The notes: generated from the letters alone by a model not told the origin. A stretch of DNA of 61,747 nt from a virus (IMGVR_UViG_3300021400_000113:104932-166678); one strand, 5' to 3'; positions 7,403 to 48,522 are shown, counted from the stretch's first letter. Numbers and translations: made by a program.

Positions 7403-9688
7403 ATGGATATTAATATTATAAAACGTACTGGAGAGGTAGTACAATTTAATCATAAAAAAATTATAAATGCTATTAGTAAAGCTTATCATGATGTAAGAGA
7501 AGGAGAAGAAATTCCTTGGTACGCTGAAAAAATTGCTAATGAAGTATATGAAGTAGCAGAGCAAAATGAATCGCCACTTACAGTTGAAGAAATTCAAGAA
7601 CTAGTAGAAGATTATTTAACTGATTATGATAGATTAGTTGCCAAGGCTTATATAAGATATCGCTATAAGCGGGGAGTAATGCGCGCCTGTTCAGACGAGT
7701 TTATTCGCTCTATTAGTGAAAAACTACAAGCAAAAAACGTACAAAATCAAAACGCTAATGTAGATGAACATTCTTTTGGTGGTAGAGTTGGAGAAGCTTC
7801 GGATGAAATGATGAAACAATATGCACTAGACTTTTGCGTTTCTCCAATGGCACGTGCGAATCATTTAAATAATGAAATTTATATTCATGATTTAAGCGCG
7901 TATGCGGTTGGTATGCATAATTGTCTAAGTATTCCATTTGATAAATTGTTGGCAGAAGGTTTTAATACTCGACAAACTGACGTGCGGCCAGCCAATTCAA
8001 TTAATACTGCTTTCCAATTAGTTGCTGTTATCTTTCAACTTCAATCATTAATGCAGTTTGGCGGTGTCAGCGCCACTCATTTAGATTGGACTATGGTGCC
8101 TTATGTAAGGAAGAGCTTTTGGAAACATTTCAAGGATGGATTGAAATGGTTAGATAATGATTCAAATGGAGCACATTTTTTCTTAGGAACAGATGTTACA
8201 AAAATGCCTATTGAGCCATATAATCATCCATCAACAGACCCTCAAACATTATTAATAGTTCAGACAGCTCAAGATATGAAGGCATATAAGTATGCTATGG
8301 AAATGACTGAACGTGAATTACAACAAGCAGTTGAAGGTATGTATCATAACCTAAATACATTATAGAGTAGATCGGGGAACTAGTTGCCTTTTACCTCTAT
8401 CAACTATGGAACTTGTACCCTACCCGAAGGTCGCATGGTAATAAAAGCATTACTTGAAGGCTCAATCAAAGGAGTAGGTAAATTCCATAAAACGCCTATT
8501 TTCCCTTGTGGTATTTTCCAACTTGGAAAAGGCATTAATCGCGCACCAGGTGATCCAAACTATGATATGTATCAATTAGCATTAAAATCAACCGCAAAGC
8601 GTATTTATCCTAATTATGCAAATATTGACTGGTCTGGTAATGCTGGATATGACAAAAATGATCCAAAGACATTCTTTAGCACCATGGGTTGTAGAACCGC
8701 GAATGGCGCAGATATCAACGCAGAACCGGGAGTTAACCCACAAACTAAGGATGGCCGCGGTAATATTTGCCCAGTAACTATTATTATGCCAACCATTGCT
8801 ATGGAAGTTAAAGAAAATTTATATAATTCAATGCTTTATCCAGAAGAATTTGATCAAGACAGTTTAATTGAAGAGTTTATAAATAAATTAGACCAAAAAA
8901 TCCATGAAGCAAAGGATATGTTAATTGAGCGCTTCAATTGGATTTGCTCTCAATCACCCGCTTCTGCTAAATTTATGTATGAAAATGGTACTATGTTAGG
9001 CTATCATCCAGAAGAAGGTATTCGTTCAGCATTAAAACATGGCACTATTGTAATCGGTCAATTAGGGCTTGCTGAAACTTTACAAATTTTAATTGGTTGC
9101 GACCATACTACTGAAAAAGGTATGATATTAGCAAAACGTATTGAGCAACTATTTAAAGATAGATGTGCTGAATTTAAAAAAGAATATAAATTAAATTTTG
9201 GAGTATATTATACTCCAGCTGAAAATTTATGTTATACTGCAATGAAAAAATTTAAAGCCAAGTATGGTGAAATTCCTAATGTTTCTGACCGTGAATATTT
9301 TACAAATAGTATCCACGTTCCTGTATGGCATGAAATTTCTGTATTTGATAAAATTGATATTGAAAGCCAACTAACGGGATATTCTAGTGCTGGATGTATT
9401 ACTTATGTTGAATTACCAACCGGTGTTAAAAATAATATTGAAGCGCTCGAAACAATTGTAAATTATGCTATGGACCACGACATTCCATATTTTGCTTGTA
9501 ATTTAAAATTAGACTGTTGCGATGATTGCGGTTATCAAGATGAAATGAATGATACTTGTCCTCAATGCGGAAGTCATAATATTTCTCAATTACGCAGAGT
9601 AACTGGATATTTAACTGGTTCATATAAGAAAGCATTTAATTGGGGCAAACAAAAAGAAACGGAAGATCGTGTGGAGCATATACACTAA
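7403..9688 (+). CDS. nrdD: anaerobic (class III) ribonucleoside-triphosphate reductase with ATP cone; 2 TAG(Gln)
   Basis: ATP cone; TAG at 8363 and 8381 give the conserved NLNTLQSRSGNQLPFTSINYGT; C-terminal CDDC..CPQC and RRVTGYL glycyl-radical motif. Confidence 0.95.
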
Positions 9689-10203
9689 TGAGTAAAATTG
9701 CTGGTATATATTGGGATGATACCGCGGCAGCGCCCGGTATCTCCCTCTCGGTTTATTTTTCTGGATGTCACTTCCATTGCCCCGGATGTCATAATCCAGA
9801 AGCACAAGATTTTAATTTTGGTGAAGAGTTTAATATGAAAAAAGCATATGAAATATGCTTTAAATTAAATAAAAATAATATTATGCGCAAGCTAAGTATA
9901 TTAGGTGGAGAACCTTTAACAGATGAAAATTTACTCGCGGTTTCACAATTAGTTGATATATGTAAATTTCATTTTCCAGATTTAGAAATTTATGTATGGA
10001 CTGGATATTTATATGAAGAATTGCAAGAGCGCGCAAGTAAAGAAGGATTTGAAGCTGGTTTATTAACAAATATCTTAAATAAAATTGATTATATTATTGA
10101 TGGACGTTTTGAGCTAGATAAGCGTGATATAACCTTACCATTGCGTGGTTCATCAAATCAAAGAATTATTCATATAGAACATGATAATGAGGATGAAGAA
10201 TAA
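9688..10203 (+). CDS. nrdG: anaerobic RNR activating enzyme (radical SAM)
   Basis: TAATG overlap with nrdD; GCHFHCPGCHN; LGGEPL; DGRF..LRGSSNQR. Confidence 0.92.
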   Translation: MSKIAGIYWDDTAAAPGISLSVYFSGCHFHCPGCHNPEAQDFNFGEEFNMKKAYEICFKLNKNNIMRKLSILGGEPLTDENLLAVSQLVDICKFHFPDLEIYVWTGYLYEELQERASKEGFEAGLLTNILNKIDYIIDGRFELDKRDITLPLRGSSNQRIIHIEHDNEDEE

Positions 10204-10218
10204 TCGTCCTCATTATCA
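10184..10218 (+). terminator. hairpin spanning the nrdG stop codon
   Basis: GATAATGAGGATGA-agaataa-TCGTCCTCATTATC. Confidence 0.6.
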
Positions 10219-10226
10219 TTTAATAT

Positions 10227-10255
10227 TTGACTTTCTCTTAAAACTGTGTTATAAT
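10227..10255 (+). promoter_or_regulatory. sigma70/sigmaA promoter
   Basis: TTGACT-17 bp-TATAAT with extended TG. Confidence 0.75.
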
Positions 10256-10290: not shown

Positions 10291-11283
10291 ATGGAGTGGA
10301 TAATAGTTGGTATTCTTGCTATTGCTATAATTATTTTAATAATAAAACTAGGAAAGAAGCAAGATATAGATAAAACAGAATTAAATAAATATTAGGAAGA
10401 ATTAGCATTTGCAAAAGCTAATTTATCAACAATAGATTATAATTGTAAATAGATAACGGAACGCGTTCGAGAAGCAGAAGAAAAATATTATTCTATTATT
10501 GAATAGTATAAGCAAGCTACTGAGTAGAATCAAATTGACTTAGATGAATTTTTTATTAATCAAAAAGATGCCCGTCAAGCAGAACTAGATAAAGCATTTG
10601 AAGAACAAGAAAAATAGCGTCAAGAATCATTAAATTTAAGAATGAAAACTTTTGTGGATCAGGCGCAAAATAGAATCAATGAAGCCGAAAAAGAGGCCTA
10701 GATAGCAATTGAAAATTGGCGCAAGGCTCAAGATGATATTGCGGCAGAAACAGACAGGCAATTAAAACGATATGAAGGATTATTGGGACCGCTTCAATAG
10801 TATGAAAAAGAATAGCAAGAAAAATTATTTTATACTATATAGGTTCCTGATGAATATAAAGAAGATATAAATTTCCTAATAACAACTGTTTCGTAGAAAG
10901 TATAGCATCCTGATATTATAAATAAACTTGTTTGGGCGGAGTATGTTAAACCATATATAGATGAAACTTTTAAGCGGGTCGGAATTAAAGATGAAGCTGG
11001 AATTTATAAAATAACAAATATTGAAAGTGGTAAGTGCTATATTGGTAAAAGTACTAATATTAAAAAACGTTTAACAGACCATTTTAAATCCAGTATCGGA
11101 ATTAAAACAATCGCGGATTAGGCTGTACATCATGAAATATGGAAAACAGGATTTTGGAATTGGACAATAGAACCAATTATCTATTGTGATAAAGATGAAT
11201 TAAATGATTTAGAAAAGTATTATATAGAATTTTTTAAAAGCCAAGAATTTGGTTATAATAAAAATGCGGGTGGTGGCGGTTAA
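10291..11283 (+). CDS. N-terminal TM + coiled coil + GIY-YIG endonuclease domain (TAG-recoded, 330 aa)
   Basis: MEWIIVGILAIAIIILIIKL; long EQ-rich helix with many in-frame TAG; AGIYKITNIESGKCYIGKSTNIKKRLTDH..LEKYYI..GYN; TAA overlaps the next ATG. Confidence 0.85.
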
Positions 11284-14448: not shown

Positions 14449-14487
14449 AAAAAAGAGCCCCTCTAAAAAGAGGGGCTTTATTTTTTT
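14449..14487. terminator. bidirectional intrinsic terminator between convergent modules
   Basis: A-run, AGCCCCTCT-aaaa-AGAGGGGCT, T-run. Confidence 0.85.
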
Positions 14488-17400
14488 ATCCTTCTGCGTT
14501 AGTTGATGAAATTTTTGGATAATAATATACAGTGCAGGGGACTTTTGAAGTTGTGGCATCACACTTGCAATGTAATACTAATTCACTTAATCGAATTCCA
14601 TTATCAACAGTTCTATTATTCATTTCTAAATATATAGTCCATCCTTCAACAAAAAGATTGTTCTTAGCGTCAGTGTAAATGCTATGTGTGGTTTCAAAAA
14701 CCCCACTATCATATTGATTTTGTGATGGAATTACATAAGAAAATCTCTATATTGTTCTTGAATTACTTCCCTTTTCAGCGTGAGGCTAGAAATTAATTGT
14801 TTGATTATAGCCTTCTGGGTCTACCTGATTAACAAAATAATTTCCAGTAATCCAATATTCATATTTAGAAGAGCCATCTCCAAAATAAGTTATTGGCTCC
14901 ATAAGCTATAAAGTTGCTGTATAATTTGAATCGCTACCAGAATATGAAGGTATAATGGTAGTTCCTAATTTCATTTCACTACGAGTCTCTGCATCATAAT
15001 AAGGTCTTATTAAAACCCAATCTCCCTTCCCTGCCATTTTTTGTTCTATTGACTCAACACTTTTTCTCCAAGTATTAGCTGTATCACTATCAGGAACGTT
15101 TGGATTCATTATAACAATATCATCACGAGCCCAAACGTCATTGCCATTTATACTAATACGCTCTCCAGAGACTTGTAATCCATCTTTATTCATATGAATA
15201 TAACTAGAAGGTTTAATATCAGTTTCACTATAATAATCAAAAGAAATACCTTCTTTATTAATTGACACTGTTGTTTCTAAACTATCAGATTCATTATCAT
15301 TAATTAAGCTTTCATCAAGACTCTTTGGAGTATTTCTAGGAATTATAATTCCCTTATTTGCTCCAAATAATAATCCATATTCAGAAGTCAAGGCAACGTA
15401 TTTTTCTTTTTTTCCTTGCTCTCCCCAATCAATTGAAGTAAGTCCAGATATAGAATATTTACTTGAATCAATAAGGGCTTCATTAATATGTCCTTCTGAA
15501 TCTAAAAAGTTTTTAAATTCATTACCAGATTGTATTTTAAATTCAGTAGCCTTAATGGCCCCTGTAATTTCTAATCCATTTGTAATATTATATTTTAAAG
15601 CTGTATCATATTCATTATTACTATTAGATTTTAATTTTTTTAATTCAAAAATACTTTCTGTATCGGTTGCCGCTGAATTAATTATTAAATTAGCAGTATT
15701 AACATATAATTCTCCACCAGACCCAATATCAATACCCTTACTGGATATACGAACGTATGAAGCGTCAGCAATATTAAGTTTTCGTAAATTTTCTGTTGTA
15801 TCATTTATATTAATACCAAATTTTTCATTTTCCTCATTAACTACCGCACTACCTAATGTAATTCCTTTATCATTCATTAAAATAGAATTAATAATATTAT
15901 TATTATAAGTAGCAAAGCCAATAGAATCTTTAGTAAATTTTGCACCAATTAAATCATTAATAGTTCCAGTAACATTAGTAATATTTAAATCTTTAATTAA
16001 TTCTCCATCCTCGTTATAGGTTTCACTATCAGTAATAATATCTCCCGACGCTAAAACTAAATATTTTTCGGTAAATTTAGCCGCGGTTGCATTTTGATCA
16101 GAAGATGCGCCTAAAATTAAACGCTCTGGACTTAAATCAATAGATACTCCACTAGTCTCTCCAATAACGCCAGAATATAATGATATTTTCTAATCAGAGC
16201 CAATAAAGATTCCCTAATTGTTAATTTGTACCGCAGAAGTATATTCTCCATTCTTAGAAGAAATTAAATCTATACCACGAGAAAAGCCTTCGTCTGCGCC
16301 ACGAACAAATCCAGCAAGTATATCAGCATTTTCAGAAGTTAATGCTCGTATATCTGCTAAGGCATTTCCCGCTCCACTCAGAACCTATCCAGCCTCATTA
16401 AAAAGACTGGTTAATGTATTTCGTATTACTGGGCTACTTGTTAAATGTTCATCAATATAAGTCTTAAAAATTGGAGCATTAATCTATAACATTTTTGTTG
16501 TAGCCTCTGGAGTTAAACTTCCGTCAGTCATAAATGCCGCGGCCGCAACATCATAATTAAATTCATTCTTCTTCATACTTTCCGAAGAAGCAACAATTGT
16601 ACTGAATAAATCTTCAAATTTATTCTTATAATTTTTAACTTCAATGCTATCCTCCCAAGGAGCATCTAGCTTCAATTCCATATGAGAGATATAACCCTAA
16701 ACATTTTCAAATTTTAAATCATTATCATTTATATGCACTATTTGTGCTAATTTATTATAAATACTATGTATTAAGTTTGGATTATATAGATTTAATTTAA
16801 CTTCATAAGAAACTTTTGGTTCAGAATTTTCTTTTGCTATTTTGAGCGCGTCTAAATAAATACAAGTATCTGCGTTAGAAATTGAATAACTAATATTTAT
16901 TTTAGGATTAAGGCTGCCATATTGAAAATAAATTTTTGGTTTTAGAGAAATATAATAAGCATTATTTTCTATTAAAATATAATAATCTTCATATTCTTTT
17001 AATAAAACTGTTTCTTGCTCAACCTCTATATTAACTAGCAATTCATTACTACTAGTATTTAACGATAATGAATCAATTTTAATTCTAGGATTTACCGCGA
17101 TCGGAGTACCTTCAATAAAATTTTCAATTTTAATAGGAGAATTTTCTATCTCATTTCCATTTAAAACGCCAATACAAGGGAAGCGTTCTTCTTCCGAAAC
17201 AGAATCTTTTATAAATTTAATTTGTTCTTCTGTAAATAAGCTACTATCTGTAATAATTAATACTGGCTTACGCACTCCATTATCCATTACAAATCCAAAT
17301 TGACTTTGAGAGCCTACGGGGGAATTGCGTAAAGCATTTCTTATATAAGCAATTTGTTGAGATTCAGAAACATTCTCCTCATTTTTTAATTTTTCATTTA

Positions 17401-19483
17401 GTTCAACAATAGATTTATCATAATAAATAAAACTTAAATTACTAAAATTTTCTTTTATATAAGGCAAATCTTCTTCTTGTAATTCTGCCATTAAATAATA
17501 TTTAGTAGTTGGCTCCGCTCCTTCCTCATAAGTAATTTTATTATCACCATCAAACTTTTTTGTATCCCAAATATATGAAGCATAACCATCTTCTGTAACT
17601 TCACTATTTCCTCCAAATGAGGCTTCATATTTATCTCCATAATCATTATAATTTTCTGGTTGCCAATATCCTTCACGAAGTGCGGGACCCATTATATGTT
17701 CAAAAGCTTTAATTTCTTTATCCTTTTCTTCAAGATATTCCTAATACTAATTTTCAAGAATGATTTTCTAGTCTTTATCATCTTCTAACTTTGTACTTAT
17801 TTGGCTATATTTAGTACTATGCTAATTATATACTTCTGTCCAATATTCAAGAACATTAGTCCAATACGTTTCTGGAACATATTCACAAGTTAGCCAAAAC
17901 GAAGTAAATTCCACTTCATTAAGCGTATTATCTAAATTTCTTATATATACTAAATTATTAAATTCATCAAATTCCATAACCCCATCAGTAATTTCATGGG
18001 CTTTATTAAATGGATCTTTTACATTAGTATAATCAATTATACCAGCATATAGCTTTACAGTACTTGGTATAATACCATTAACTGGCATTTTTATATAATA
18101 TTTATCAGTATCTGTTTCTTTAATAAGCATACATGCTTTCGCATTAGCCCCACTTAAAGAAATTGCTTTATCATCACTACTAGTATTTAAAGCCCCAATA
18201 TATGAACTTGCTACGTCCATTTGTTTCTTGGCTTCATCTTTCTATTTTAACTCAATACTTTGATTAGCTTTTTCATCTAAAATAATTTTTTCTAAATTGC
18301 TCTTTTTATTCCAAGTATCTTCAATGTTTTTATTTATTCTATTCATACGAATCTCATAATTACTAACTTCTTCATATTGCTCATCAGTAATTATATTAAA
18401 TTTATGTAAATAATCAAAATTTAAAAGATAATCTTCTCTACTCTTATTAGCATCTACACTCATAATAGTAACTTTACCGCTATCAGACATTTCATAATCT
18501 ACTGGCCGCACGAACATCTTTGTTACTAAATCTGTGCTATCAATCTCTCGCGTAATAAAAGTTGTATGATAAGGATAAGTTAAATCCATAAAACCATTTT
18601 CTTCTTGTATAAAATTATTATAATAAATAATTTTTCGCGCAATTATATGATAATTATCATCATGCTGATATTCATATCTACAAAAAACTCCAAAGGCTTC
18701 AGCAATTGTTTGAGTAATATTATAAAGATTGCTTTCTTCAATTTCTACCGGACGCTCTTTTTCGCGCGCGGTCTATACTGTTTTTGGTTTTAAAACACCG
18801 TTTTCTTCTTTCCAAGAGGAAACATAAGCATCTTCATATATTTTATCTTTATCATGACTGGCTTCTCCAAGCCAATTCATTTGAACATCATAATACCATA
18901 TATTTGGAATTGGAGTAATTTCGGAACTCCAACGTTCTAGTCCACATTTATCTTCGTTCCAATACTATATAGTTTGGTGAGGCAAGGCTTCTCCATTTTT
19001 AAAGCAACTTTCGTAATAGGTATTAAATTCTTCTGCTGATAAACTAATCTTATATCCAATTTTTCCAAGTTCATGGAACGCGAGCCCTTCACATTCAACA
19101 TCGCAATAAAGCTATTCTTCCTCATGACGTTCAATAACCTTAGTTATAACAAATTCAAATATAGCTTCGTCTTCTGTTTTTTTATTAAGAATTACTTTAA
19201 TTTTACGAAGGCCAACCATTAAATTCCCATTTCTAGTATTATACCAAATTGGATTTTCTTTTTTATCAATGCCAATATCTAAATACATCGGTAAAGAAAA
19301 TTTAAAATTCTACGTACCATCGGTATCTAAAATTAAATCTGGCTCTTCTATCTATCCTTTATTTTCTAAATTGGCCCACTTCAAGACAGTTATAAAACTA
19401 TCTTGAAGTGTCCAAATAGAAACTTCATAACTACGGATAGGTACTTCCTGCCCATTTATGGTCATTGTTCTTCTATTTGCCAT
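14486..19483 (-). CDS. tail tip / central fibre-like protein (1665 aa, TAG-recoded)
   Basis: Track ORFs 18242, 17822, 16697, 16484 and 14906 are all in frame with the ATG at 19483 and separated by TAG; ends TAA at the terminator; position follows the Dit-like gene. Confidence 0.8.
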
Positions 19484-34220: not shown

Positions 34221-34260
34221 AATAAAAAAAGAGCCACTCTCCTACTTGAGGAAAGTGGCT
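34221..34260 (-). terminator. probable terminator before the tape measure gene
   Basis: AGCCACT...AGTGGCT hairpin followed by a T-run on the minus strand. Confidence 0.5.
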
Positions 34261-37509: not shown

Positions 37510-37519
37510 AATCCTCACC

Positions 37520-38737
37520 TCACCATAATGGAACTATACGAATAGTTTTTGTATAAATTTGATTACCATAACTCGCTATTAATTCTACCATTCCTAATTT
37601 ATTATTATTATTAGCATGTACAGTACAACTATTATTTATTGTATTTGTAATAGTAGCGAGAGAGGTATCATTTATTGTAAATGATATATTAGATGTAATA
37701 ATACTATCATCATTGGTACTACATAACATATAAATCTATTCACGATCTAGACGTATTTTATCATTGCCCTTAATATAACAAGAAAATTCAGTTTCTTCAC
37801 TACCAACTTTAATATGAATAATTAATGGTTCCTACTCAATATCGTCGCAATCTAATAACTTAATGGCAATATCTGTTTCTCCGTTTCCTACCGCGGTTAA
37901 AACATTATTTTTTAATCTTGCGACTTCCTTATTCAATGAAGTATATTCAACTCTCATATTAACTGGGATGCCATTTTTCATAATCGTATAAATAGGTTCA
38001 ATAGGTTCATTAATATTAAATACCTAAATTGTTTCTGGTAGAGCCAATGTATATATAGCCCGCTTATCAGTATCTGCAATACCATTTGGTACATCGTCAT
38101 ATACCATATTAATTTTATTTTCAGTTAAAGATAAATAGATTGTTCCAGGAACACTAGTATGATCGTATTCAATTACCTGCCAAGATTCTTCTTCAATAAT
38201 AAAATTTGTCGCACGGTCTATTACACGCCGCGGCATTAGAATCTCTGCATATTTATTTGGCTAAGGAGTAATCAAAGCATTCCAAGTTCTGTAATTACCT
38301 TTAATTTTTGAATCCAATGAACTTACAACATAAGCCCAAGAAGATTGTAAATGCCCAAGGGCATCTATCCATTTTAATAAATAATTACATCTTATAATAG
38401 AAAATGTACGATAAGTTCCATTAACCTTCTTTTCTTCTGAAAATAATAACCATTTTTCTATCGTAGCATCTTCTTGTTCCCAGTTCATTATATCTCCAAC
38501 CTAAAGAGGAATACTATTGCTTACATTTAAAAACATAATTTTCTAATATTCCTTATCTTTATTTGTTAAAATTATTCCATTAAAATATAAACCGCGTTCA
38601 ATAGAAAGATCTTGTATAGTATGTGGAGATTCTGCTAGCCATTTTTCAAATGAACGAATTCCTCCATTTCTAATACGTTCCGCAGTTGTCTGCCCTAAAT
38701 GATTTACGCGCGAATGATATACTTCAAGATAGTTCAT
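37520..38737 (-). CDS. head-closure/neck-like protein with C-terminal Ig-like region (405 aa, TAG-recoded)
   Basis: Track fragments 38543, 38261, 38024 and 37520 share one frame separated by TAG. Confidence 0.7.
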
Positions 38738-38999
38738 CAGGAGATTCTAATCCGCCAACAAGATTCATACATTCAAATACAGTTTTTCTAAAATAATCAT
38801 AAGATAAATAACGTAATGAATGTAACTTACCCATCAAGGGCCACCAATTGATTGAATTCGCGCCAAGTCCTTGTAATTCAATAATAATTGAATCAAGAAA
38901 TTTTTCCCATTCTCCATTTTTTTCTTTTTCACAAAGCAAGCCATATAAACGACCTTTTAATTTATTACGATAACCTTCAAAAATTTCATCGGATGGCAT
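38724..38999 (-). CDS. hypothetical protein (91 aa)
   Basis: MPSDEIFEGYRNKLKGRLYGLL..., overlaps both neighbours. Confidence 0.65.
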   Translation of the reverse strand: MPSDEIFEGYRNKLKGRLYGLLCEKEKNGEWEKFLDSIIIELQGLGANSINWWPLMGKLHSLRYLSYDYFRKTVFECMNLVGGLESPDELS

Positions 39000-39474
39000 T
39001 TTTCTTACCTGCCAGTTTTCCAAATAAAGCCGCCGGCCGTTTGGCTCTAGAACGATCATAAATCCCTTCGGCCTTATGTACTTCTAAAGCTATTGAGGCT
39101 TCTAATTTTATTAATTTATCTAAATGATTTGCTTGTGAAAAATCTTTATCGGCATACAACTGACGAATATTTTCCCAACTATTTATACAACGCTTTACCC
39201 ATTCATGTTTCATGTAAAGCGCTAATAGCTAAATTTCATCATTTGTTAAATCATTGACAAATTGAAATTTATGTAATGGAGAAGGATCATCTTCCTCTTT
39301 ATCTAAATTTTCAATTGTTAAGTCTACTCTTGGATATTTAAATCGGAAAATGGCTATTTTTAGAAGTTCTTGCCAGTCCCGCTCTACGATGGCCAATTCT
39401 TCTTCAAGTGTCCATTCATCCGCAGTAATGCGCCCCAAGAAGGCATCATATACTTTTAAGAAAGGAGTGGCCAT
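38986..39474 (-). CDS. head-tail adaptor-like protein (162 aa, 1 TAG)
   Basis: MATPFLKVYDAFLGRIT...LTNDEI*LLALYM joins two track ORFs. Confidence 0.75.
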
Positions 39475-39917
39475 TAAATCTCTTCTGCGTGTCTTGTATT
39501 GATTAGTTCAATAATGTCTTTATCGCAATATTTTCTAATCAATGTGACAAATCCAGAATTAGTAATTCCCTTTTCCACAGCAAGGTCAACTACTGTTTCC
39601 TTTTCTGCGGGAGCGGCAGTAGGAATAAATTTAGCAAATTCAGTAATATTCAATTCATCTAGCATCTTGGAGATTTGTTGTTTATCAAAAACATTATTGG
39701 GTAATTCTTCTACCTTTTCTTCATCTTCAAGACCGGATACGTATAGATAATGCGCCCGCACTAATGAGTTAAAACCAACATCAAATGTTAAGTCTTCGTA
39801 AGTATCCTTATCTACAATAATTGCACGACCAGGAACTAATTCACGATTTAGTTTAGCTTCGGGTACAAAAAGTGATACAGTAGCATTGCTTATATTTTTA
39901 ATTGTAATTTTATCCAT
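39474..39917 (-). CDS. hypothetical virion-associated protein (147 aa)
   Basis: GGAGG RBS, directly after the capsid terminator. Confidence 0.75.
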   Translation of the reverse strand: MDKITIKNISNATVSLFVPEAKLNRELVPGRAIIVDKDTYEDLTFDVGFNSLVRAHYLYVSGLEDEEKVEELPNNVFDKQQISKMLDELNITEFAKFIPTAAPAEKETVVDLAVEKGITNSGFVTLIRKYCDKDIIELINTRHAEEI

Positions 39918-39940
39918 AAAATATTCCTCCTTTTATCTCC

Positions 39941-39971
39941 AAAAAGAAAGGGGTGGAATTTTATCCACCCC
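39941..39971 (-). terminator. intrinsic terminator after the capsid gene
   Basis: GGGGTGGA-6 nt-TCCACCCC plus T-run on the minus strand. Confidence 0.8.
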
Positions 39972-39980
39972 ATTTATATA

Positions 39981-41057
39981 TTAGTGAGTTACACCAGTTA
40001 GATTTTCATCATATGCTTCCCAATTAGTATTTACATCCAAAGAACTATTGTAATAAATACCCCAGAAGTTTAGAGGAGAAACAAGAGCTAGACCAACCTT
40101 AGTGTAAGCTTGTAATGTAATAGAATTGTCACCTTCATGATCATTCCATTCACGGAAGTAAGAATTGCCTTCAAAGATTAGCTTAAACATCTTTTCCTTA
40201 CCAGTAGGAATTACATATGCAAAAGCAGGATTCATTACTAGCTTTTCATTTGTTTCGTCAGTGAAGGACTGAGGCATTAGAACAACAGGAACGCCCTGGA
40301 ACTTGCCTACATAACCACGTTCACGAATATCAATGACATCCTGATCGGCAATCTTAGTAGTGTTATTATAAACAATAGCATTTACCATTTCAGCCGCAAA
40401 TTCAGGTGAGCAATAGATTACTGGGCTACCATAAGCTGCAACAGTATTACAAAGTTTCTTCATAGCAGTAGGATTGAAAGCATTAGCAGCAACCTTATTA
40501 CGAGGAAGCATTTTCTTCCAAGTAGAAAGTAGCATTTCTTGAATCATTTCAAAAATACGATCTACCATACCTTCATTGATTACTTCGTATAAATCGGTAA
40601 TACTTTCCACGCCGTCTAGATAACGTTCAAAATCTACAGTACCAGCTCCGCCTAATGCGAAGATGTATAGATCAAAACGATCACGGTCTAGTCTAAAGGT
40701 TTCATAGTTACCAGATTCAGTAGCGCGAGTAACAAACTGCTTGCCACGTTGTTTTCCGCGAGTTACATAAAATTCTGGACGACTGCCTTGTGGCACACGC
40801 ATAACTTCAGTAAACATATCTAGAGCAGAAGTTAGACTCTGAGGTAGAACTTCATCTAGATTTTGTGATAATAGTTCAAATAGATCAATCTTATTACGCT
40901 CAAACTTATAACGATTTAGACGACCATTTTCATCACAAAGTAATTTCTTTAGCTCATCATGTAGAGCGGCTTCATAATCATAATCGGCGGCCGCGAACTC
41001 AGCGGGGACTTTACGTCCGAATACGCCATTCATTAAAACTTTTAGATCATTATTCAT
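39981..41057 (-). CDS. major capsid protein
   Basis: 358 aa after the scaffold/decoration genes; strong RBS; no TAG; followed by a terminator; assigned from synteny and size. Confidence 0.8.
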   Translation of the reverse strand: MNNDLKVLMNGVFGRKVPAEFAAADYDYEAALHDELKKLLCDENGRLNRYKFERNKIDLFELLSQNLDEVLPQSLTSALDMFTEVMRVPQGSRPEFYVTRGKQRGKQFVTRATESGNYETFRLDRDRFDLYIFALGGAGTVDFERYLDGVESITDLYEVINEGMVDRIFEMIQEMLLSTWKKMLPRNKVAANAFNPTAMKKLCNTVAAYGSPVIYCSPEFAAEMVNAIVYNNTTKIADQDVIDIRERGYVGKFQGVPVVLMPQSFTDETNEKLVMNPAFAYVIPTGKEKMFKLIFEGNSYFREWNDHEGDNSITLQAYTKVGLALVSPLNFWGIYYNSSLDVNTNWEAYDENLTGVTH

Positions 41058-41074
41058 AAGTCCGCACCTCCTTA

Positions 41075-41680
41075 TTATAGACTTATAATCTGATACTTAA
41101 CGCCTTTTTCGCCGTTAGGTACAGTATAGAATTTTACAACTTTAGCATAAATACCAGAATTAGGTTTAGTAGCAGTAATCTTGGGAACTGCTTTTGCATA
41201 AGCTTCAGTAGCAGCTACACCGGGTACTACATATAGAGGAGTAGTATCAATAGCTTCTAGTGCAGTAAATAGAACTTCATCAGAAGTCTTTTCACTACCA
41301 GTAGTAGTTACAGCGGCAAATTCAGTATCGTCATATTGTAGACAATTTGTAGTTACAGTATCGCCAATACCAAATAATCCAACACGAGGATAATCGCCAG
41401 CGATTTTACGTCCAAAGGTCTTTAAACCATAATGGAAAATATCATATTCTTTTTCTGTGGTATATACAATACCAATTGGTTTATCAGTTGCGGCAGCAGG
41501 GGCGTTAATAGCACCAGCAGCTTTGTCGCCAACAACCCACATACCGTTTTCACAAGGATGTTCCTTAGTAAATGCCTCTCCGAGAGGAGTTTGAGATACA
41601 ACCATACCAGTCTTAGGGAACGCTACTTGATTTAGTTCTAGACTAGCATATTGTTCACATGGAAATCTTTTCATGCTCAT
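41075..41680 (-). CDS. capsid decoration/stabilising protein
   Basis: 201 aa, YASLELNQVAF..CENG.., between scaffold and capsid genes; no TAG. Confidence 0.6.
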   Translation of the reverse strand: MSMKRFPCEQYASLELNQVAFPKTGMVVSQTPLGEAFTKEHPCENGMWVVGDKAAGAINAPAAATDKPIGIVYTTEKEYDIFHYGLKTFGRKIAGDYPRVGLFGIGDTVTTNCLQYDDTEFAAVTTTGSEKTSDEVLFTALEAIDTTPLYVVPGVAATEAYAKAVPKITATKPNSGIYAKVVKFYTVPNGEKGVKYQIISL

Positions 41681-41697
41681 AATTTATTCCCTCCTAA

Positions 41698-42945
41698 TTA
41701 TTTCTTATACTTTTCAATAAGTAAAGCGAAAGAAGATCTATTATCAGGTTCTGGTAGGGGTACTTTCTTAGTTTCCTCTTTACCAGTCATTTGCTTGTTG
41801 GCAAAAGCAATAGCTAATTTACCTTCTAGCTCGTCATATGAGAAGTCATTAATCCTGGCTCTAATTGGGTTAATTTCTTCTTCTTCCAAAAGTTTTTCAT
41901 AATTTTCAATTAAATTATTTTTCTTTTCCACAGCAATATTATTTAATTGTGCTTCATAGTTAGATACAGTAGCTTGTAATTGTGCGTTTTGAGCGCGAAG
42001 GCTTTCAAGTTCTGTATTGGTAGCTTCCACGCTTGCTTCTAGTTCTTGAATGCGAGCATTCGCCGCGTCAAATTGTTGTTGTAGCGCACTATTGGCGTTA
42101 TGTAAATCTGTACATTGCTGCTGTAGGGCTTCAAATTCGACGTTATTGTTTTCTTCCGCGGCTGGCTCTTGTTGTTCGGGCTCAGTAACTACTGGCTCTG
42201 CAACTGTGGAGGGCTCTGCCGCAGGTTCTTGAAACGTGGCAGGTTCTTGTCCCTGCACGTTATTCTCTAAATTATCCATCTGTACTTCTCCTCCTTTTAT
42301 ATTTTTTTCAGCCTCTTCAACCAATGCTTTTAATTCAAATAAAAGTGAAGAGAACTTTTCATATTGTGATTCATATTTATCTTCATTCGCAGAAAAGAAT
42401 GAAGAAGCTGAAAAGCAGGGTTCGTGACTCCCAATCACACATAAACCTCGCATATCACCTTTTGTATAAACGAAGTATTCTTCTCCATCAAAGTTGGCCC
42501 AATCTCCCACGATTGTTTCTGGCTTTAATTCCATACTTTGATGCTGTCCAATAATTTTTTTAGCTTCATCATAATAGCCAGTAAATAAGACAACAGAAAA
42601 GACAGCATAATCTCTTGTAATACCATCGCTATCTTTTAATGGCTTCCATCCTATAAAATCTTCAATATACCCGTAGCCATTGGCTAATAGCGGGCCGGTA
42701 TGTGAAGCCCATGCTTCTGTTTCTGGATCAAAGAAGCCTACTACTGGAGTATCTCCATGAGTCGCGGATTCTATTAAATAATTTGCATATTCATCAGTAA
42801 TATATGAGCCATTACGATTTTTATATTTATAGAATACCCCAACTTGTAAGCGATTACCATTTTCTTCTTTTCCATCAAGAGCAATTTCTTGGACAGGAGA
42901 ATCAAGAATTATAGTATCAAAATAAATAGGTATCTTTCTTTCCAT
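41698..42945 (-). CDS. prohead protease/scaffold protein
   Basis: N-terminal protease-like region (HQSMEL, GLCVIG..EPCF), acidic linker, long coiled coil; no TAG. Confidence 0.65.
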   Translation of the reverse strand: MERKIPIYFDTIILDSPVQEIALDGKEENGNRLQVGVFYKYKNRNGSYITDEYANYLIESATHGDTPVVGFFDPETEAWASHTGPLLANGYGYIEDFIGWKPLKDSDGITRDYAVFSVVLFTGYYDEAKKIIGQHQSMELKPETIVGDWANFDGEEYFVYTKGDMRGLCVIGSHEPCFSASSFFSANEDKYESQYEKFSSLLFELKALVEEAEKNIKGGEVQMDNLENNVQGQEPATFQEPAAEPSTVAEPVVTEPEQQEPAAEENNNVEFEALQQQCTDLHNANSALQQQFDAANARIQELEASVEATNTELESLRAQNAQLQATVSNYEAQLNNIAVEKKNNLIENYEKLLEEEEINPIRARINDFSYDELEGKLAIAFANKQMTGKEETKKVPLPEPDNRSSFALLIEKYKK

Positions 42946-42956
42946 AATTATTCTCC

Positions 42957-44522
42957 TTAACCTGCGGCCGCGATATTGGCCTGGGTCTTTTCAGATTTTT
43001 GTTCATCAGGAAGTTCTGGACGTCCTCCTGTATTATTTATGTTGCCACTTGACTACCCACTATTACTTTTTTGCGCGGATGAGCTAGTTTTTTCTTCTCC
43101 CGCTACTACATTTCCAGAAGTAGTATATGAAGATTGTAGTGGTATCATCTTTTCTGACATCTTTAAGAAATCATTTTCAAAATCCATTAAACTTAATTGA
43201 CTCATTTGCTTAATTCCCATAGCCACACCCGCAAACATTTTAGAATATCCATATTGCGCGCCACGGAAATAAGCAGTTTGTAAATCTTGTCTGTTAAAAG
43301 CAGTTGTCGGTAAAATTTCAAAATCAAATGTTAATCCCTTGCGCGAAAAAATATTATTTAAATGATATTTAATCCATGTTTCATATACATTTAAATAACC
43401 CGTCATTAAACTTTCATCTTTTTTAATCATATAAGCCAATGAGGAACTCCCATCTGGATTAAATAATATATTACCTCGTCCTAGGGCATCCCAAGCATTT
43501 TTACGATACTTTTCAATACGGTCAGCAGACTAAGAAGCCGCGCTTGTTTCTTGTAAACTCTCTAATTCAGTATCACCAAATGTAGTTAATACATCAACTG
43601 TGTCTATATCTCCTAACATACTAGCAACACTAGCATGCATTTCTGCCGCTTCATCTAGCTAGAATACAAGTTCACCATCTTTATCTACTGGTAACTATTG
43701 AATTAATAATTTATATAATTCATTTTCATCACGCTTTTCCTCGCGACCAATAGCATCATCTAATTTTTTTAAGGCTGGAATACTAGCAATTAAAAGTGGA
43801 GTCTAATCATTTGGAAAACAGAAACAAATGCCTCCTCCGCCCGCACCAATCATTACCCAGGGATCTGTCTTTTTCTTTGAACGAATCCATTCTATCCAAG
43901 CGCGTCTTACATCTTCTGGAAAAGAATTGATTACTTCTTCGCGCACAGCAGAATCAGTAAAACGTTCAAAATATAGAAGATTAAGTTCAAGTATATTTAA
44001 ATTATTAAAATCCTTAAAGCGTGTACGACAAAACTCTACTGGTAAGTCTTGAATGACGGGCTTATTATTTTCTATTCTCAGTATACCATAATAAATACCA
44101 TTTTTAAGCCATTCAGTAGTAATATTAGCAAAAGTATTTGGGACATCTAATTTATCAACAAAATCGCAAGCATTATAAAATGCCTTTATAATTTGTGTCT
44201 TCGATCCTTTGCCTCCTTCAAAATTAGGAATTATAACAGTATCATAAAGTGGCAGATGCGCGAGAAAATCAATATTACTTCTATACTCACTATTGGTTCT
44301 ATAAAAATATTTAGATAATGCACGTAAAGCAACTATATCTCCATTACGAATTATTTCATAAATTTCTTCTAATGTAAAATCACGAGCTACTGGATCACGA
44401 GAACTTATACGCCATCCTCTATAATCATAACTACGGTCGGAGAGAGGCGCACGAGGAATTGATGCTACCTTTCTTTTAAATGTGACAAAATCATAAGGCT
44501 ATCTTTTTTTATTTTCTTCCAC
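42957..44522 (-). CDS. portal protein (521 aa, TAG-recoded)
   Basis: GTG start after GGGGTG; follows the terminase; acidic C-terminal tail ...PLQSSYT..GGRPELPDEQKSEKT. Confidence 0.78.
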
Positions 44523-44527: not shown

Positions 44528-46315
44528 TCACCCCCTTTTTCTTGGAGTAAAAAATGTATACTAAGAAAAATCACGTTTGTTCTTTTTCTTTAAAGCTAAA
44601 TCTTCATAATATTTTACACGATATAGTCCATATTCAAGCGCAGAAAAACGGTCCTTTTCTAATGAATGAGAAATGCGTTCAACTTTAAATTGATTCTAAA
44701 TTCCAGTTGGTTTTAGCCGCAAGTTATTTAATTCGTCCATTAAACGAGAAGTCATTTCATATGGCATTAAATAAATACGTCTATCAATTGGAGTCATTTT
44801 TTGACCGCGCTTTGTCTATAATAGTCTATCCCTTACAATACGTTCGTGTGCTAAGAAAGAGACAGAGCCATTATTTATCTAGGTAAAAAAATTGGAATTG
44901 ATTGCGTCATCATTAGATGAGCCCGCTTTTATATCATATATAATTGCGTTATATTCAGGCCAAGGAGCTTCTCCCTCATTTTTCTTTTCAGGAGGTAAAT
45001 GATGGTCGTTATTAAATGCGTAATATGAAGGAAATTGTTCTCCTGTTTTTGCATCAAAAGAAGGAACAACCATGGCATCTAATAATCCAATACCAGGGCC
45101 GTTGCCGTCAATAACAATTTCTTTTGGATTATATAATTGTATTAGCTTTTTTAAACGAGGGGCTTGTTCGGTTATATAGTTAGCTCCATGAATAACTTCT
45201 GTATAAACAATATTTTTTCTAAACCCATTATCATTAGGAATAACTTTAATAACTATTACAGCGGTATTAGCAGAATATCTAGCTACGTCAACCCCTATCA
45301 CATAAAATGTCTTCGGATTAGCAGGATTCTACTATGCTTTCCGCTCACATTTTAATAAAGTTCTTCTTTTATTTAATCTTCTTGAATCTAACCAAGCATC
45401 TTTATTATTTCCAGTCCAAATAGATAAAGATTCACGCGCAAAACTCTCTTCATTCATTGTAGAGGAATTACGCTGATCTTCCATCATTTTCTTATTTATA
45501 ATACCATAATATAATGGAACTTCATATGAAAGGCCCCATACAAAATAATCTTCTGGATGGAGAATAGCATTAATAGTACATTCAATAAGTTTACCATACA
45601 TAAATACAATACGTTCGCGCGCGGTTGTTATGAAGGTTTGAGTTGATACGGGTTCTTCTGGATTTAAGGTTCCGTCAACTTCGCGGCGAGGTACGTTCAT
45701 TTGAGGCAATAAAACTTCATTATAGTCTTCTTCTTCAATTGTCGCAGCTTCTTCTAAAATGCCCGCAGTCGCGCGAAGACCACGACTTGTATCTTTTGAT
45801 ACAACTGTTATACTGCTACCATTTTTAAAATGTAATTCATAATAGTTGCCACTTTTCTTTTGTCCAGTCTTTCCATCGTCTTGCTAAGTTGTAAGTTCAC
45901 GACGCAAAATAGGCCAATGCTTGAAAAATTCTTCAAACTTGGCTTCTGCGGTTTTAATAACCGTGCCCTTAATATCTGAAGCAATAAATATGTTAGAGTT
46001 AGGTAGTAGAATTGCTTTTACCAACGCGCTTAAATAAGCGGTAAATGATTTTGATGTCGCGCGCGTGGCCGTCCAAAAATGATAACGATAACGCATACTT
46101 GCGCGCAGCGCTATGCGTTGAAAAGGCTATAAATGCCAATGTTTAGCATCTTCTGTATCTTGAAGTGTATCTAACATTAAGTCTGGATAAAGTATCCATA
46201 AATTTAAATATTTTGTAAAAAGTTCTTGATTCGCATCTAAAAAGTCCTTTGTTAAAACTACGCCTTTCTCAATAGGGATACCATCACGTAGTACGACTTC
46301 CTAATAATCATTCAT
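44528..46315 (-). CDS. terminase large subunit (595 aa, TAG-recoded)
   Basis: H L*PFQ, Walker A-like TATRATSKS, SRGLRATAGILEEAA (Walker B), nuclease IGVDVAR, C-terminal KDRFSALEYG. Confidence 0.88.
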
Positions 46316-47255
46316 CGTACCCTCCCCCTTGTAATTCAACCGCGAGCTCATCTTCATCTTCATATTCAACATCAGCGGTTTCATCAAACTCAACTTTTTC
46401 GTTTTCAATTTGTTCAAGGCGTTCAGTCATATTATATTGGTCGCGCTTTGATTCAACCTATTCCGCAAAATTACCCTCATTAATAACAAGGCGCTTTAAA
46501 TAATTTTGAATATTCTCCATCATAAAGTCAATAGAATCTTGCGGTTCAGTATGCCATTTTGGATGCCACCCTTTCTTGCCATAATAGACCATAAGCTCTC
46601 CAATAGATTCAAAATCTGCCGCGTTTTTCGCATTGGAGGCTTCAAAGTGTGCCATTTTAATAATATTGTCACGGGCGTCCATTAATTTTTTAACATCCTA
46701 TCCACTACGCAGTCCATTCTTAATTTGTAATTCTGTTTCGCATAGATCGCGCGCGTAATGCTTTAAAATTGGCGTTGATACATTCTATGTGGCTACAATT
46801 GCATTATAAAAATCTTCCAAAAATAAAAGCTCTTCTTTTGTATAGGTTGGCGCCCATTCCTTTTTAAGCCGCCGCAATTTAGCCTCATTTAAAACTTCAA
46901 TTTCCTCATCAATTATGCCTTCTTCGCGCGCGAGGCGCCAACGTTCATTTTCATCGGCCCATTGAAGCGCGGCATAATGGTCATCAAATAATAGGTTAAA
47001 GTAGGCCGATAATGTATGCTCTTTATGTGTCTTATAAAGCGATGTCCATTTATTTAGGTCAAATGGAATGTCTAAGTAACGACAAAGTCTATCAACTTCT
47101 CCTAAATTTTCCTAATCAATCATGCGTTCAAGGCACTAAGTGCAAATAAGAGAACGATGGCCGGGAAAGAAGTTAGATGGAGTTCGCGCGAATTGAATTT
47201 CAGGCTTTTCCTCCTTGCATTTCAGACATTTGCGTTTCTTTACTTCTTCTGTCAT
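46308..47255 (-). CDS. hypothetical protein with N-terminal Zn finger, possible terminase small subunit (315 aa, TAG-recoded)
   Basis: CLKC..CT*C; overlaps the terminase start; role inferred from position only. Confidence 0.65.
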
Positions 47256-48522
47256 TTAATCCTTGCCCTCCTTTTTCTATTCTACGTTTTTTCTCGCACT
47301 CTTTACAATTAGAAGAAAGTCCATCTTTGCGGCTACGATTGCGCACAAAGAATAAGGGCGAAGCGGGTAAAGTGCGTCCGCAGGCTTTGCATACTTTTCT
47401 CTAATCAAGTGGAGTATCTATTAGAGAGTGATATTTCTAGGCGGCAAGTGCTATTTTTTCTGGGATTTCTTTTGATAAAATTGTACATAAATGATTTTCA
47501 TTATATTTAAGCCCATACTTAATTTGTAAGTTTTCTACAATTTCAATATAGGGCATTTTCTCAATTTTTCTATCTAATATATACTACCTAACTTCTGTTA
47601 GGTCTGCCATATCGCGATAGCGCTCAAAATCAAAAATTAGAGTGCGGCCGTAGGTATCAAGTTTTTCATAAACCTAATCATACAGCATATCGTAATTATT
47701 AATAAGGGCGCGAACGTGTTTTGGATCCTCCCAGTTAAAGGTGTGGCGGCGTATCATCCACTTAACTTCTATATTTCCCTAATCATCTACCCGGGTCTCA
47801 TAGTCCTCTATGTTTTTGGATATAGTGCGTAGTGATTCTTCAACACGGCGTTGCCATTCTTCATATGAAATCCAATAGAAAGAGTCGCAAGTCCAATCGT
47901 AGAAAGCGGGGTGCGGGTGGTCCATATTTTGGAAATGAAGAGTGGGTTTATAGGCATCGCGCAAATAGTATTGATGACGCCGCACATCAATTAGCATATG
48001 TTCTAGTTGGTATAGGCGATAGCTATCATCTAAAATTGTTGTAGTTTCGTCTGGTGGTACGCGCCCCTTATTAACTGCGACGACATGTTCTAGGTGGTCA
48101 ATACATTCCCAAATTTGCTACATGCCGGGAATATCACCGTCGCCAATATCAATAAGTTCGCCTGTTTTTTTATCGTATTTTGGGCGCTTAATTTCTTGCT
48201 TTTTCTTTGTATAAACTTGGCGTGTATTTGAAGGTTTAAGTGATTGTTGGTCCGCCATTGGATTTTCAAGCATTTCATCCAATGATAAAAGTTTATCGTC
48301 CATGCGCTTGTAGCTGCCGTAGCGCTTGTTGCCGTCGGTAGTTTCACCACGCTAAACTGCGTTTAAACCATTCTCATCTTTACCATATAAAATATATGAA
48401 CCCATCTATTCAAGTTCGGTTTCGGTTGGATCGGTATCTAATGTATCTAATATATCTTTAACAGCTTGAACACGGTCAATATCGCGTTCAACGCTATAAT
48501 CTAATGAGTATTTTTTCTTCAA
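47200..48522 (-). CDS. hypothetical protein with C-terminal CxxC..CxxC finger (440 aa, TAG-recoded)
   Basis: TTG start after GGAGGTG; track fragments 48406, 48118 and 47779 in one frame; CKACGRTL..RKDGLSSNCKEC. Confidence 0.7.

Follow-up and report, generated by a model that had tools for sequence, protein, structure and literature searches.

TAG as a probable glutamine codon in the late genes of a 167-kb tailed phage

Some phages of the gut and rumen are known to read the TAG stop codon as glutamine (genetic code 15). This reading has been described in crAss-like, Lak, Garnet, Amethyst, Topaz and other phages by Borges et al. (bioRxiv 10.1101/2021.08.26.457843), who saw only TAG-to-Gln and TGA-to-Trp changes, and has been validated by proteomics (Peters et al., bioRxiv 10.1101/2022.01.06.475225). 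Phass-1 and the proposed genus Phassvirus (Babkin et al. 2023, PMC10607447; GenBank OQ749652) are TAG-recoded gut siphoviruses of ∼135 kb, the described members being 82–86% identical in nucleotide sequence among themselves. These phages encode suppressor tRNAs, the alpha subunit of DNA polymerase III and a tape measure of 3150 aa; terminase alignments were the argument for glutamine, a synthetase gene was not detected, and Clostridia are predicted to include the host (PMC10607447). The Phass-1 group and the code 15 phages are the closest published relatives of the phage analyzed here.

The window is a stretch of 61,747 nt (positions 104932–166678 of IMGVR_UViG_3300021400_000113), whose coordinates are used below unless genome positions are given. 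From sequence analysis we consider it, with a probability of about 0.93, to be the late-gene half of a tailed phage genome, complete, circular and 166.7 kb long, whose TAG codon has changed its meaning from stop to glutamine. A preliminary description of the same DNA had proposed this reassignment and noted that gut phages were known to use it; we judge the proposal correct but, as the work cited above makes plain, not new.

Stop usage and coding density in the recoded block

The TAG-bearing block extends from 6102 to 48918, slightly wider than the span of 7403–48522 originally given, which lies inside it. Its genes, together with the replication genes to the left, are as follows.

3–6102, plus strand: RecJ-like exonuclease and DnaE-type polymerase III alpha (1327 aa), replication genes (Pfam; codon counts); no TAG, identical reading under either code
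6102–7184, plus strand: ORF of 360 aa, no function assigned; 5 in-frame TAG; left edge of the block
7403–9688, plus strand: NrdD anaerobic ribonucleotide reductase, 761 aa; Pfam NRDD, E 3.9e-147, in a single stretch over exactly two in-frame TAGs, codons 321 (8363–8365) and 327 (8381–8383), in the motif LNTL-X-SRSGN-X-LPFTSINYG
9640–10203, plus strand: NrdG activase; Pfam Fer4_12, E 3.7e-35; no TAG
10291–11283, plus strand: GIY-YIG homing-endonuclease-like protein, 330 aa; Pfam GIY-YIG, phrog_314; 12 TAG, 46% of its Gln codons
13314–14060, plus strand: RuvC-like Holliday junction resolvase, 248 aa; phrog_827, E 3.5e-23; 10 TAG
14486–19483, minus strand: ORF of 1665 aa, downstream of the tape measure gene with 19508–21151 between; 18 TAG; no Pfam or PHROG match in profile searches; its position suggests a tail tip or fibre
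19508–21151, minus strand: late ORF, 547 aa; 8 TAG
21157–34194, minus strand: tail tape measure protein, a single frame of 4345 aa; 124 TAG, no TAA or TGA; phrog_4211, E 1.4e-44, and seven further tape-measure PHROGs
34260–35150, minus strand: paralog of the next virion structural protein (phrog_2729); 6 TAG
35223–36218, minus strand: virion structural protein (phrog_2729), possibly the major tail protein; no TAG
36240–38761, minus strand: three late ORFs of 269, 187 and 413 aa; 9, 6 and 7 TAG
39981–41057, minus strand: probable HK97-fold major capsid protein, 358 aa; phrog_4088; no TAG
41075–42945, minus strand: two head-module ORFs of 201 and 415 aa, the latter apparently coiled-coil and scaffold-like; no TAG
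42957–44522, minus strand: portal protein, 521 aa; phrog_2739, E 3.2e-70, residues 46–516; 6 TAG
44528–46417, minus strand: terminase large subunit, 629 aa; PHROG terminase families; 9 TAG
46308–48918, minus strand: two ORFs of 315 aa and 572 aa (C-terminus of the latter sigma-like and HNH-like); 5 and 8 TAG; right edge of the block

Across the 30 genes between 6.1 and 48.9 kb (14,261 codons) TAG occurs in frame 241 times and TAA and TGA not once, whereas the other two frames of the same genes contain 2455 such triplets (1378 TAA and 1077 TGA). All 30 genes end in TAA (19) or TGA (11), none in TAG. This agrees with the preliminary description as regards the stops, but the strict coupling of gene ends to the next start (TAATG/ATGA) that it also reported is found at four junctions only, with starts taken from the longest ORFs. 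When TAG is read as sense the coding density of 7403–48522 rises from 47.6% (code 11) to 97.9%; the corresponding values with TGA or TAA as sense are 54% and 75%. The warning that standard annotation would miss most structural genes is thus borne out: code 11 loses about half of this 41-kb region and shatters the tape measure, tail, portal and terminase genes, and database entries for this phage and its relatives need TAG as sense. The tape measure, tail-end ORF, terminase, portal, RuvC-like and GIY-YIG genes are each a single frame interrupted by TAG alone, just as first described; the tally of ‘fourteen’ tape-measure and ‘five’ tail-tip fragments varies with the cut-off (8 tape-measure pieces at ≥90 aa). 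Homologous tape-measure frames in relatives range from 3152 to 6244 aa, and that of a standard-code relative has no TAG.

Under code 11 the block appears as an array of gene fragments, and could be taken as one of decayed genes, or of sequencing or assembly errors, in which the TAGs are true stops. We give this reading almost no credence. Decay cannot produce a frame of 13 kb that contains TAG 124 times and neither of the other stops, and TAA and TGA, so frequent off frame, never fall in frame. Pfam and PHROG family matches run across the TAGs of NrdD, portal, terminase, tape measure and resolvase, with homology carrying on beyond them, and the genome encodes a cognate tRNA-CUA. Sequencing error is excluded because TAG is conserved opposite TAG in 161 aligned pairs among independently assembled contigs.

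Relatives also align across TAGs close to the C-terminus: 27 do so at the last TAG of the terminase gene and four at the last TAG of the ORF at 6102–7184. Up to four apparently genuine genes beyond the window carry a TAG no more than 12 codons from their end with no relative aligned across it; given these, TAG may occasionally terminate.

Glutamine opposite TAG, and glutamate in a sibling

Relatives of this phage include members with the standard code and one, the sibling G002, whose TAG columns favor glutamate. The amino acid therefore cannot be assumed and calls for a column test in each genome, the more so because the long extra arm of the tRNA-CUA (below) could have pointed to Ser, Leu or Tyr. 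Pfam matches being scarce among the TAG-bearing genes, codon-level alignments to relatives took the place of a Codetta-like column test based on Pfam.

Among 30 related IMG/VR contigs the commonest codons opposite the TAGs of this genome are CAA (265), TAG itself (161) and CAG (46), a 13.7-fold enrichment of Gln. Over 161 TAG sites aligned with nine standard-code relatives, Gln makes up 38% of the aligned residues against a background of 3.6% (10.7-fold), the enrichment of homolog columns that the preliminary description had predicted, and Glu stays at its background (1.0-fold). With the 30 contigs, maximum likelihood favors Gln, ahead of Lys, Glu and Ser by a per-site-weighted margin of over 60 log units. 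True CAA/CAG sites, used as calibration in the standard-code relatives, give Gln 52%; the lower figure at TAG could mean that these sites are less conserved, or that a minority is read otherwise. The alignments thus support TAG as a sense codon for glutamine, as in code 15.

Individual genes provide examples. Several TAG sites of the RuvC-like resolvase have only TAG or CAA among relatives, and portal site 331 has TAG in 9 and CAA in 13. The two NrdD TAGs had been placed at Gln columns: this holds in the closest standard-code NrdD, that of the sibling G004, where the codons are CAA and CAG, but only in part in solved NrdD structures (PDB homologs), where the first site is His or Phe and Gln occurs at the second (327) or beside it. 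The phrog_2729 paralogs are only 22% identical and tell nothing about TAG columns.

Glutamate deserves consideration since it is the commonest replacement of Gln and is apparently the reading in G002, for which 216 in-frame TAGs could be aligned: the present genome has GAA or GAG opposite 115 of them, and the log-likelihood of Glu exceeds that of Gln by 189 units. For the present genome the same reading is very improbable. Glu stands opposite its TAGs at background (1.0–1.2-fold, against 10.7–13.7-fold for Gln), and, at 164 TAG sites of the present genome, G002 has CAA or CAG in 60 cases and TAG in only 7. The tRNA-CUA genes of the two phages are unrelated in body: that of G002 is 74 nt long with a Glu-like D arm, while a tRNA-Glu-like body was not found here, the tRNA-CUA combining Gln- or Trp-like acceptor and D arms with an extra arm. 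Per-genome likelihoods reject Glu for this genome. A literature search did not find TAG-to-Glu in phages, which is not proof of absence.

The suppressor tRNA and the distribution of TAG among genes

ARAGORN identifies one tRNA with anticodon CUA, at genome positions 47569–47658, ∼57 kb before the window. It is 90 nt long and in the ARAGORN fold has a long variable (extra) arm; the neighboring gene is a 91-nt tRNA-Tyr. The acceptor and core comprise an A1·C72 mismatch, G2-C71, G3-C70, G73 and G10 with a 4-bp D stem, acceptor features that would be of the Gln type, and the anticodon arm resembles that of the phage's own tRNA-Trp. The 7-nt loop of the extra arm, UUCUGAG, is like a Gln anticodon loop. 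Long-armed tRNA-CUAs of this class are widespread; their extra stem covaries and the loop follows N-U-(C/U)-U-G-A-N.

A type II-like extra arm beside a tRNA-Tyr might suggest that TAG encodes Ser, Leu or Tyr, and genuine tRNA-Ser-like CUA tRNAs are present in other IMG/VR contigs. The alignment columns rule this out in practice and we rate it even below glutamate: opposite TAG, Ser (0.77-fold), Leu (0.36-fold) and Tyr (0.25-fold) are all depleted. Moreover, the discriminator G73 speaks against Leu and Tyr, and the 4-bp D stem, weak 1:72 pair and G2-C71/G3-C70 resemble tRNA-Gln or tRNA-Trp, not tRNA-Ser. Pyrrolysine or another non-canonical residue is suggested by nothing but the ARAGORN label ‘Pyl’, given automatically to any CUA anticodon; the tRNA is without the compact tRNA-Pyl architecture and Lys-like residues are barely enriched opposite TAG (1.2–1.5-fold, against 10.7–13.7-fold for Gln), which leaves that reading a negligible chance.

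The preliminary description had named tRNA-CUA, RF2 and GlnRS as genes that might lie elsewhere in the genome, and the first alone was found. Searches of the 166.7-kb genome that detected their positive controls returned no PCRF-domain (release factor) gene, RF2 included, and no class Ic synthetase gene (GlnRS or GluRS). Charging would be left to a host enzyme: the tRNA-CUA may be aminoacylated by host GlnRS, or by a non-discriminating GluRS followed by GatCAB, and, once charged, would outcompete host release factor 1 at UAG. As a clue to host or prophage, a relative of the terminase was sought in 185,579 bacterial and archaeal genomes and none was found. In four sibling genomes a DNA-similarity search with the tRNA-CUA matched the T-arm only. 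ARAGORN detected tRNA-CUA genes of differing sequence in G001 and G002, but none in G003, a Gln-recoded sibling, or in G004; a relaxed match in G003 was rejected as a false positive (28% GC).

A broader reading, possible but in our view somewhat doubtful, is a single family in which TAG has three states: a stop in some members (G004, for example), Gln in others (this genome, G001, G003 and about 20 contigs) and Glu in G002, with the residue set by the body of the phage's own tRNA-CUA. Here the extra arm would act as a natural ‘anticodon decoy’, presenting the host charging machinery with a spare Gln anticodon loop (N-U-C/U-U-G-A-N); by conjecture, it would provide the G36 identity nucleotide, which is missing from a CUA anticodon. 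If true, the extra arm is a natural means of reprogramming tRNA identity. No long-armed or anticodon-mimic suppressor tRNA was encountered in a literature search, although this does not prove absence.

TAG is unevenly distributed. Among low-copy late genes and homing nucleases it supplies ∼40% of the Gln codons; the TAG-bearing late genes are those for terminase, portal, tape measure, tail tip, nucleases and, outside the window, endolysin. The replication genes and the early small-gene array have essentially no TAG and so would be translatable by an unmodified host. Under the timing model of Borges et al., the TAG-bearing late genes would be translatable only once the suppressor is present. 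NrdD, set against this model, also carries TAG, at low frequency.

TAG is likewise absent from the major capsid gene block, and the avoidance in both sets of genes is family-wide. Across ten Gln-recoded relatives the capsid gene has no TAG against 132 CAA/CAG, and homologs of the structural protein at 35223–36218 in Gln-recoded relatives have one TAG against 59 CAA/CAG. The capsid assignment is a probable one: the structure model has low confidence (pLDDT 55) and only its consistent HK97-fold ranking was used, the top structural matches being capsid proteins and encapsulins (E up to about 1e-5, ∼250 at E ≤ 0.001). Family-wide avoidance of TAG in the major capsid gene block suggests that UAG decoding carries a cost, high enough for selection to act against it in the proteins with the strongest expression. 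This refines the view that ‘late genes are recoded’, in that the most abundant virion proteins avoid TAG.

Comparison with known systems

As in the code 15 phages, TAG here appears to be read as Gln, with TAGs concentrated in structural, packaging and lysis genes and replication genes largely compatible with the standard code; the phage encodes a tRNA-CUA and no dedicated synthetase, and standard-code gene callers fragment the late genes. Unlike them, it belongs to a separate lineage, a 167-kb siphovirus with an SPbeta/Tsamsa-type terminase, a DnaE polymerase and a giant tape measure, and has no RF2 gene. Its major capsid gene block is TAG-free family-wide, so that the recoding split is not simply one of early versus late, and within its family some members keep the standard code and at least one is of the TAG-to-Glu kind. 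The code 15 phages thereby gain a lineage of giant siphoviruses of the Bacillota type.

Similarity to Phass-1 extends to the capsid protein, which is 33% identical over 87% of its length. The present phage differs in its larger genome (167 kb), in having one tRNA-CUA rather than three, and in that its close relatives come from other metagenomes. With only about 33% amino-acid identity in the capsid it falls outside the proposed genus Phassvirus, on sequence grounds, although the two may share a wider clade. The terminase is 31–37% identical, over ∼90% of its length, to those of Geobacillus virus E3, Bacillus phage Tsamsa and SPbeta-like phages. These and Enterococcus phage H1, all large Bacillota siphoviruses, resemble it in genome size, long tape measure and DnaE-type polymerase but keep the standard code.

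For the tRNA, the combination of a CUA anticodon, a weak 1:72 pair, G2-C71, G3-C70 and G73 is one that GlnRS accepts on a foreign tRNA body. The E. coli su+7 suppressor, reportedly described by Yaniv et al. in 1974, is said to be a tRNA-Trp with a CUA anticodon that is charged with Gln, and Rogers and Soll in 1988 reportedly gave amber suppressors derived from tRNA-Ser a Gln identity by way of the 1:72 and 3:70 pairs. Those are laboratory mutants; the phage tRNA-CUA has in addition a conserved extra arm, the loop of which resembles a Gln anticodon loop.

Genome layout and TAG as a sense codon

The window occupies bases 104,932-166,678 of one 166,678-bp contig (GC 34.5%). Because the first ∼107 bases of the contig recur at its end, it is a complete phage genome, either circular or terminally redundant. 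On TAG-read-through translation the window shows three gene blocks:

Plus strand: replication and nucleotide-metabolism block (RecJ-like, DnaE-type polymerase III alpha, NrdD, NrdG, GIY-YIG nuclease, dUTPase, RuvC-like resolvase)
Minus strand: complete morphogenesis block (terminase, portal, head genes, tail genes, 4345-aa tape measure, 1665-aa distal tail ORF)
From ∼49.9 kb onward, plus strand: small-gene array

Large Bacillota siphoviruses such as Geobacillus E3, Tsamsa, the SPbeta-like phages and Enterococcus H1 have terminases that share 31–37% identity with the one encoded here. The tape measure (21157-34194, minus strand) is a single 13-kb frame containing 124 TAGs; its homologs in sibling genomes range from 3152 to 6244 aa. 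Tail length usually follows a rule of ∼1.5 Å per tape-measure residue, by which these predicted proteins would imply tails of ∼0.5–0.9 µm, among the longest predicted.

The preliminary description proposed that TAG is reassigned to glutamine (genetic code 15) across 7403-48522. Over this span coding density rises from 47.6% (39 ORFs, code 11) to 97.9% (26 ORFs) when TAG is read as sense; as controls, reading TGA or TAA as sense gives 54% and 75%, respectively. The block is real, although its edges had been drawn slightly narrow: it extends from 6102 to 48918. The coding frame of the 30 genes at 6.1–48.9 kb (14,261 codons) contains 241 TAG codons and neither TAA nor TGA, while the two off frames of the same genes contain 1378 TAA, 1077 TGA and 638 TAG. 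All 30 genes terminate in TAA (19) or TGA (11), as had been reported for those gene ends that were traced. Profile matches run uninterrupted over the TAGs of the portal (phrog_2739, E 3.2e-70), the tape measure (phrog_4211, E 1.4e-44) and the resolvase (phrog_827, E 3.5e-23). The same is true of NrdD (Pfam NRDD, E 3.9e-147, residues 117–759), the quoted motif of which is exact and places TAG at codons 321 and 327. The numbers of TAG-interrupted fragments originally given for individual genes vary with the length threshold chosen. Sequencing error as the source of the TAGs is ruled out by 161 aligned TAG–TAG pairs involving relatives, whose contigs were all assembled independently.

The residue inserted at TAG

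Two observations meant that the identity of the residue needed a real test: the tRNA-CUA of this phage is 90 nt long with a Ser/Leu/Tyr-like extra arm and adjoins tRNA-Tyr, and one sibling genome (G002, below) appears to read TAG otherwise. The relatives comprised 30 IMG/VR contigs around the terminase (69–80% amino-acid identity) and four whole sibling genomes (G001–G004). All ORFs were aligned with TAG masked as X and the codons were then read back; a substitution table derived from these alignments served to score the candidate residues.

Opposite TAGs of the studied genome the relatives carry CAA (265), TAG (161), AAA (68), GAA (62) and CAG (46); all serine codons together number 37, leucine 26 and tyrosine 10. 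At many sites the relatives show TAG and CAA/CAG exclusively, as at portal codon 331 (TAG 9, CAA 13). Across all relatives glutamine is 13.7-fold enriched opposite TAG, and it is the best-scoring residue, ahead of lysine by 62, glutamate by 70 and serine by 76 log units (per-site-weighted).

Nine relatives (G004 and the terminase loci L007, L010, L017, L023, L024, L031, L033 and L035) are essentially without in-frame TAG and therefore use the standard code. At the 161 TAG sites covered by this subset glutamine accounts for 38% of aligned residues against a background of 3.6%, a 10.7-fold enrichment, and glutamate stands at 1.0-fold. Glutamine is the majority residue at 57 of these sites, followed by lysine at 16. 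As a calibration, CAA/CAG sites of the studied genome give 52% glutamine in the same nine relatives. The claim that the two NrdD TAGs fall where homologs have glutamine holds in G004, where the codons are CAA and CAG; against solved structures it stands in part, since the second site aligns at or next to a conserved glutamine but the first is histidine or phenylalanine. Judged on these sequence comparisons, the reading of TAG as glutamine is correct and well supported.

Decoding machinery and codes within the family

A search of the rest of the genome, as the preliminary description had advised, located one tRNA-CUA gene, the genome's only tRNA with this anticodon, within a tRNA array ∼57 kb before the window (genome positions 47569-47658; L003:9569-9658). 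Neither a gene with a release-factor PCRF domain nor a class Ic (Gln/Glu) synthetase domain was found in the genome by searches that matched control genomes. Features of this tRNA are an A1.C72 mismatch, the pairs G2-C71 and G3-C70, G73 as discriminator, G10, a D stem of 4 bp, and an anticodon arm similar to that of the phage's own tRNA-Trp. In E. coli, an acceptor set of the A1.C72/G2-C71/G3-C70/G73/G10 type makes GlnRS accept amber suppressors. A host enzyme would charge the tRNA with glutamine, either directly or via Glu-tRNA and GatCAB.

The extra arm consists of a 3-bp stem and a 7-nt loop, UUCUGAG, which appears to mimic the glutamine anticodon loop. Among IMG/VR tRNA-CUA genes 143 share the anticodon arm, ∼50 of them 84–95 nt long and bearing an extra arm of this kind. 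In an alignment of 35 of the long genes, chosen for carrying the motif, the stem covaries (second pair from the loop: C-G 20, G-C 11, U-A 4) and the loop conforms to N-U-(C or U)-U-G-A-N, with the triplet CUG in 26 and UUG in nine; CUG and UUG are the two glutamine anticodons. We conjecture that this spare loop may aid recognition by the host charging enzyme.

The 27 predicted tRNA genes of the genome (array at 40–53 kb, L003) include a tRNA-Ser with anticodon ACU and three tRNA-Leu genes of 76–78 nt that lack the usual long variable arm. Within the window, a tRNA gene at 60803-60893 (plus strand; Rfam RF00005, 48 bits) has normal acceptor, D and T arms, but the stretch that ordinarily forms the anticodon arm and variable region is 36 nt long instead of 18; ARAGORN's Ser(UGA) call is based on a poor stem, and an intron or an atypical arm could be present. 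Three tRNA-CUA genes on other IMG/VR phage contigs (L122:7318-7407, L239:948-1035, L165:3799-3886) are built on a genuine tRNA-Ser-like body, with a GGAGAG... acceptor, G73 and a variable arm that is long and GC-rich, which suggests that certain other phages may decode TAG as serine.

Reading TAG as sense raises coding density strongly in the studied genome and in G001–G003, and slightly in G004 (81% to 85%). G003 (L056–L064) is recoded to glutamine, its density rising from 59% to 89%. No credible tRNA-CUA was detected there by ARAGORN or motif search; a relaxed match (28% GC) was a false positive. In G002 (IMGVR_UViG_3300031994_000011, L047–L055; 172 kb with direct terminal repeats), 115 of 216 aligned in-frame TAGs face glutamate codons (GAA/GAG) of the studied genome and nine face glutamine codons (CAA/CAG); glutamate scores 189 log-likelihood units above glutamine. 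Its tRNA-CUA (L049:10570-10643) is 74 nt long, has a Glu-like D arm and is unrelated to that of the studied genome. G002 thus appears, from sequence, to read TAG as glutamate. The standard-code relatives (G004, L065–L073, and the eight terminase loci) share ∼70–80% terminase identity with the studied genome, which means that the code has changed within the family, where TAG would have three readings (glutamine, glutamate and stop).

Distribution of TAG and relation to known recoded phages

Genome-wide, glutamine is encoded by CAA (1088), TAG (440) and CAG (334), such that TAG outnumbers CAG. There is no TAG in RecJ, DnaE, NrdG or dUTPase, and in NrdD it makes up 2 of 33 glutamine codons. In the terminase, portal, tape measure, distal tail genes, GIY-YIG nuclease and RuvC-like gene it accounts for 32–75%. 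TAG is nearly missing from two minus-strand regions, the head block at 38724-42945 and the phrog_2729 tail gene at 35223-36218 (one TAG in six genes); at the ∼40% TAG share of neighboring late genes, the chance of finding none alongside the 49 CAA/CAG codons of these six genes is, by our calculation, ∼1e-11. Since these genes avoid TAG although late, the pattern is not simply one of early versus late.

One member of the head block, ORF 39981-41057, is probably an HK97-fold major capsid protein: its structure model is poor (pLDDT 55), but the top structural matches are capsid proteins or encapsulins (E down to 2e-7; ∼250 at E ≤ 0.001). Avoidance is retained in 9–15 glutamine-recoded relatives, where this candidate has no TAG against 132 CAA/CAG and its neighbors have TAG/(CAA+CAG) counts of 0/31, 1/65 and 1/59. 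TAG is carried by low-copy late proteins and selfish nucleases, and the most abundant virion proteins are without it. This avoidance fits a cost of suppression, added to the published timing model of Borges et al. (10.1101/2021.08.26.457843), in which TAG-bearing late genes become translatable once the suppressor tRNA is present.

Phages that recode TAG to glutamine, encode suppressor tRNAs and have late genes rich in TAG have been published (10.1101/2021.08.26.457843; PMC10607447), so the present case joins a known phenomenon. It is chiefly of practical use in annotation; it also gives context to the family's two odder features, the tRNA-CUA and the glutamate-reading sibling, both outside the window. 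The preprint of Borges et al. (10.1101/2021.08.26.457843) observed only TAG-to-Gln and TGA-to-Trp. Among described recoded phages, the Phass-1 group (PMC10607447) is the most closely related; its members combine a DnaE polymerase and a 3150-aa tape measure with TAG as glutamine and a predicted host in Clostridia, and the capsid protein of the window shares 33% identity with its Phass-1 counterpart.
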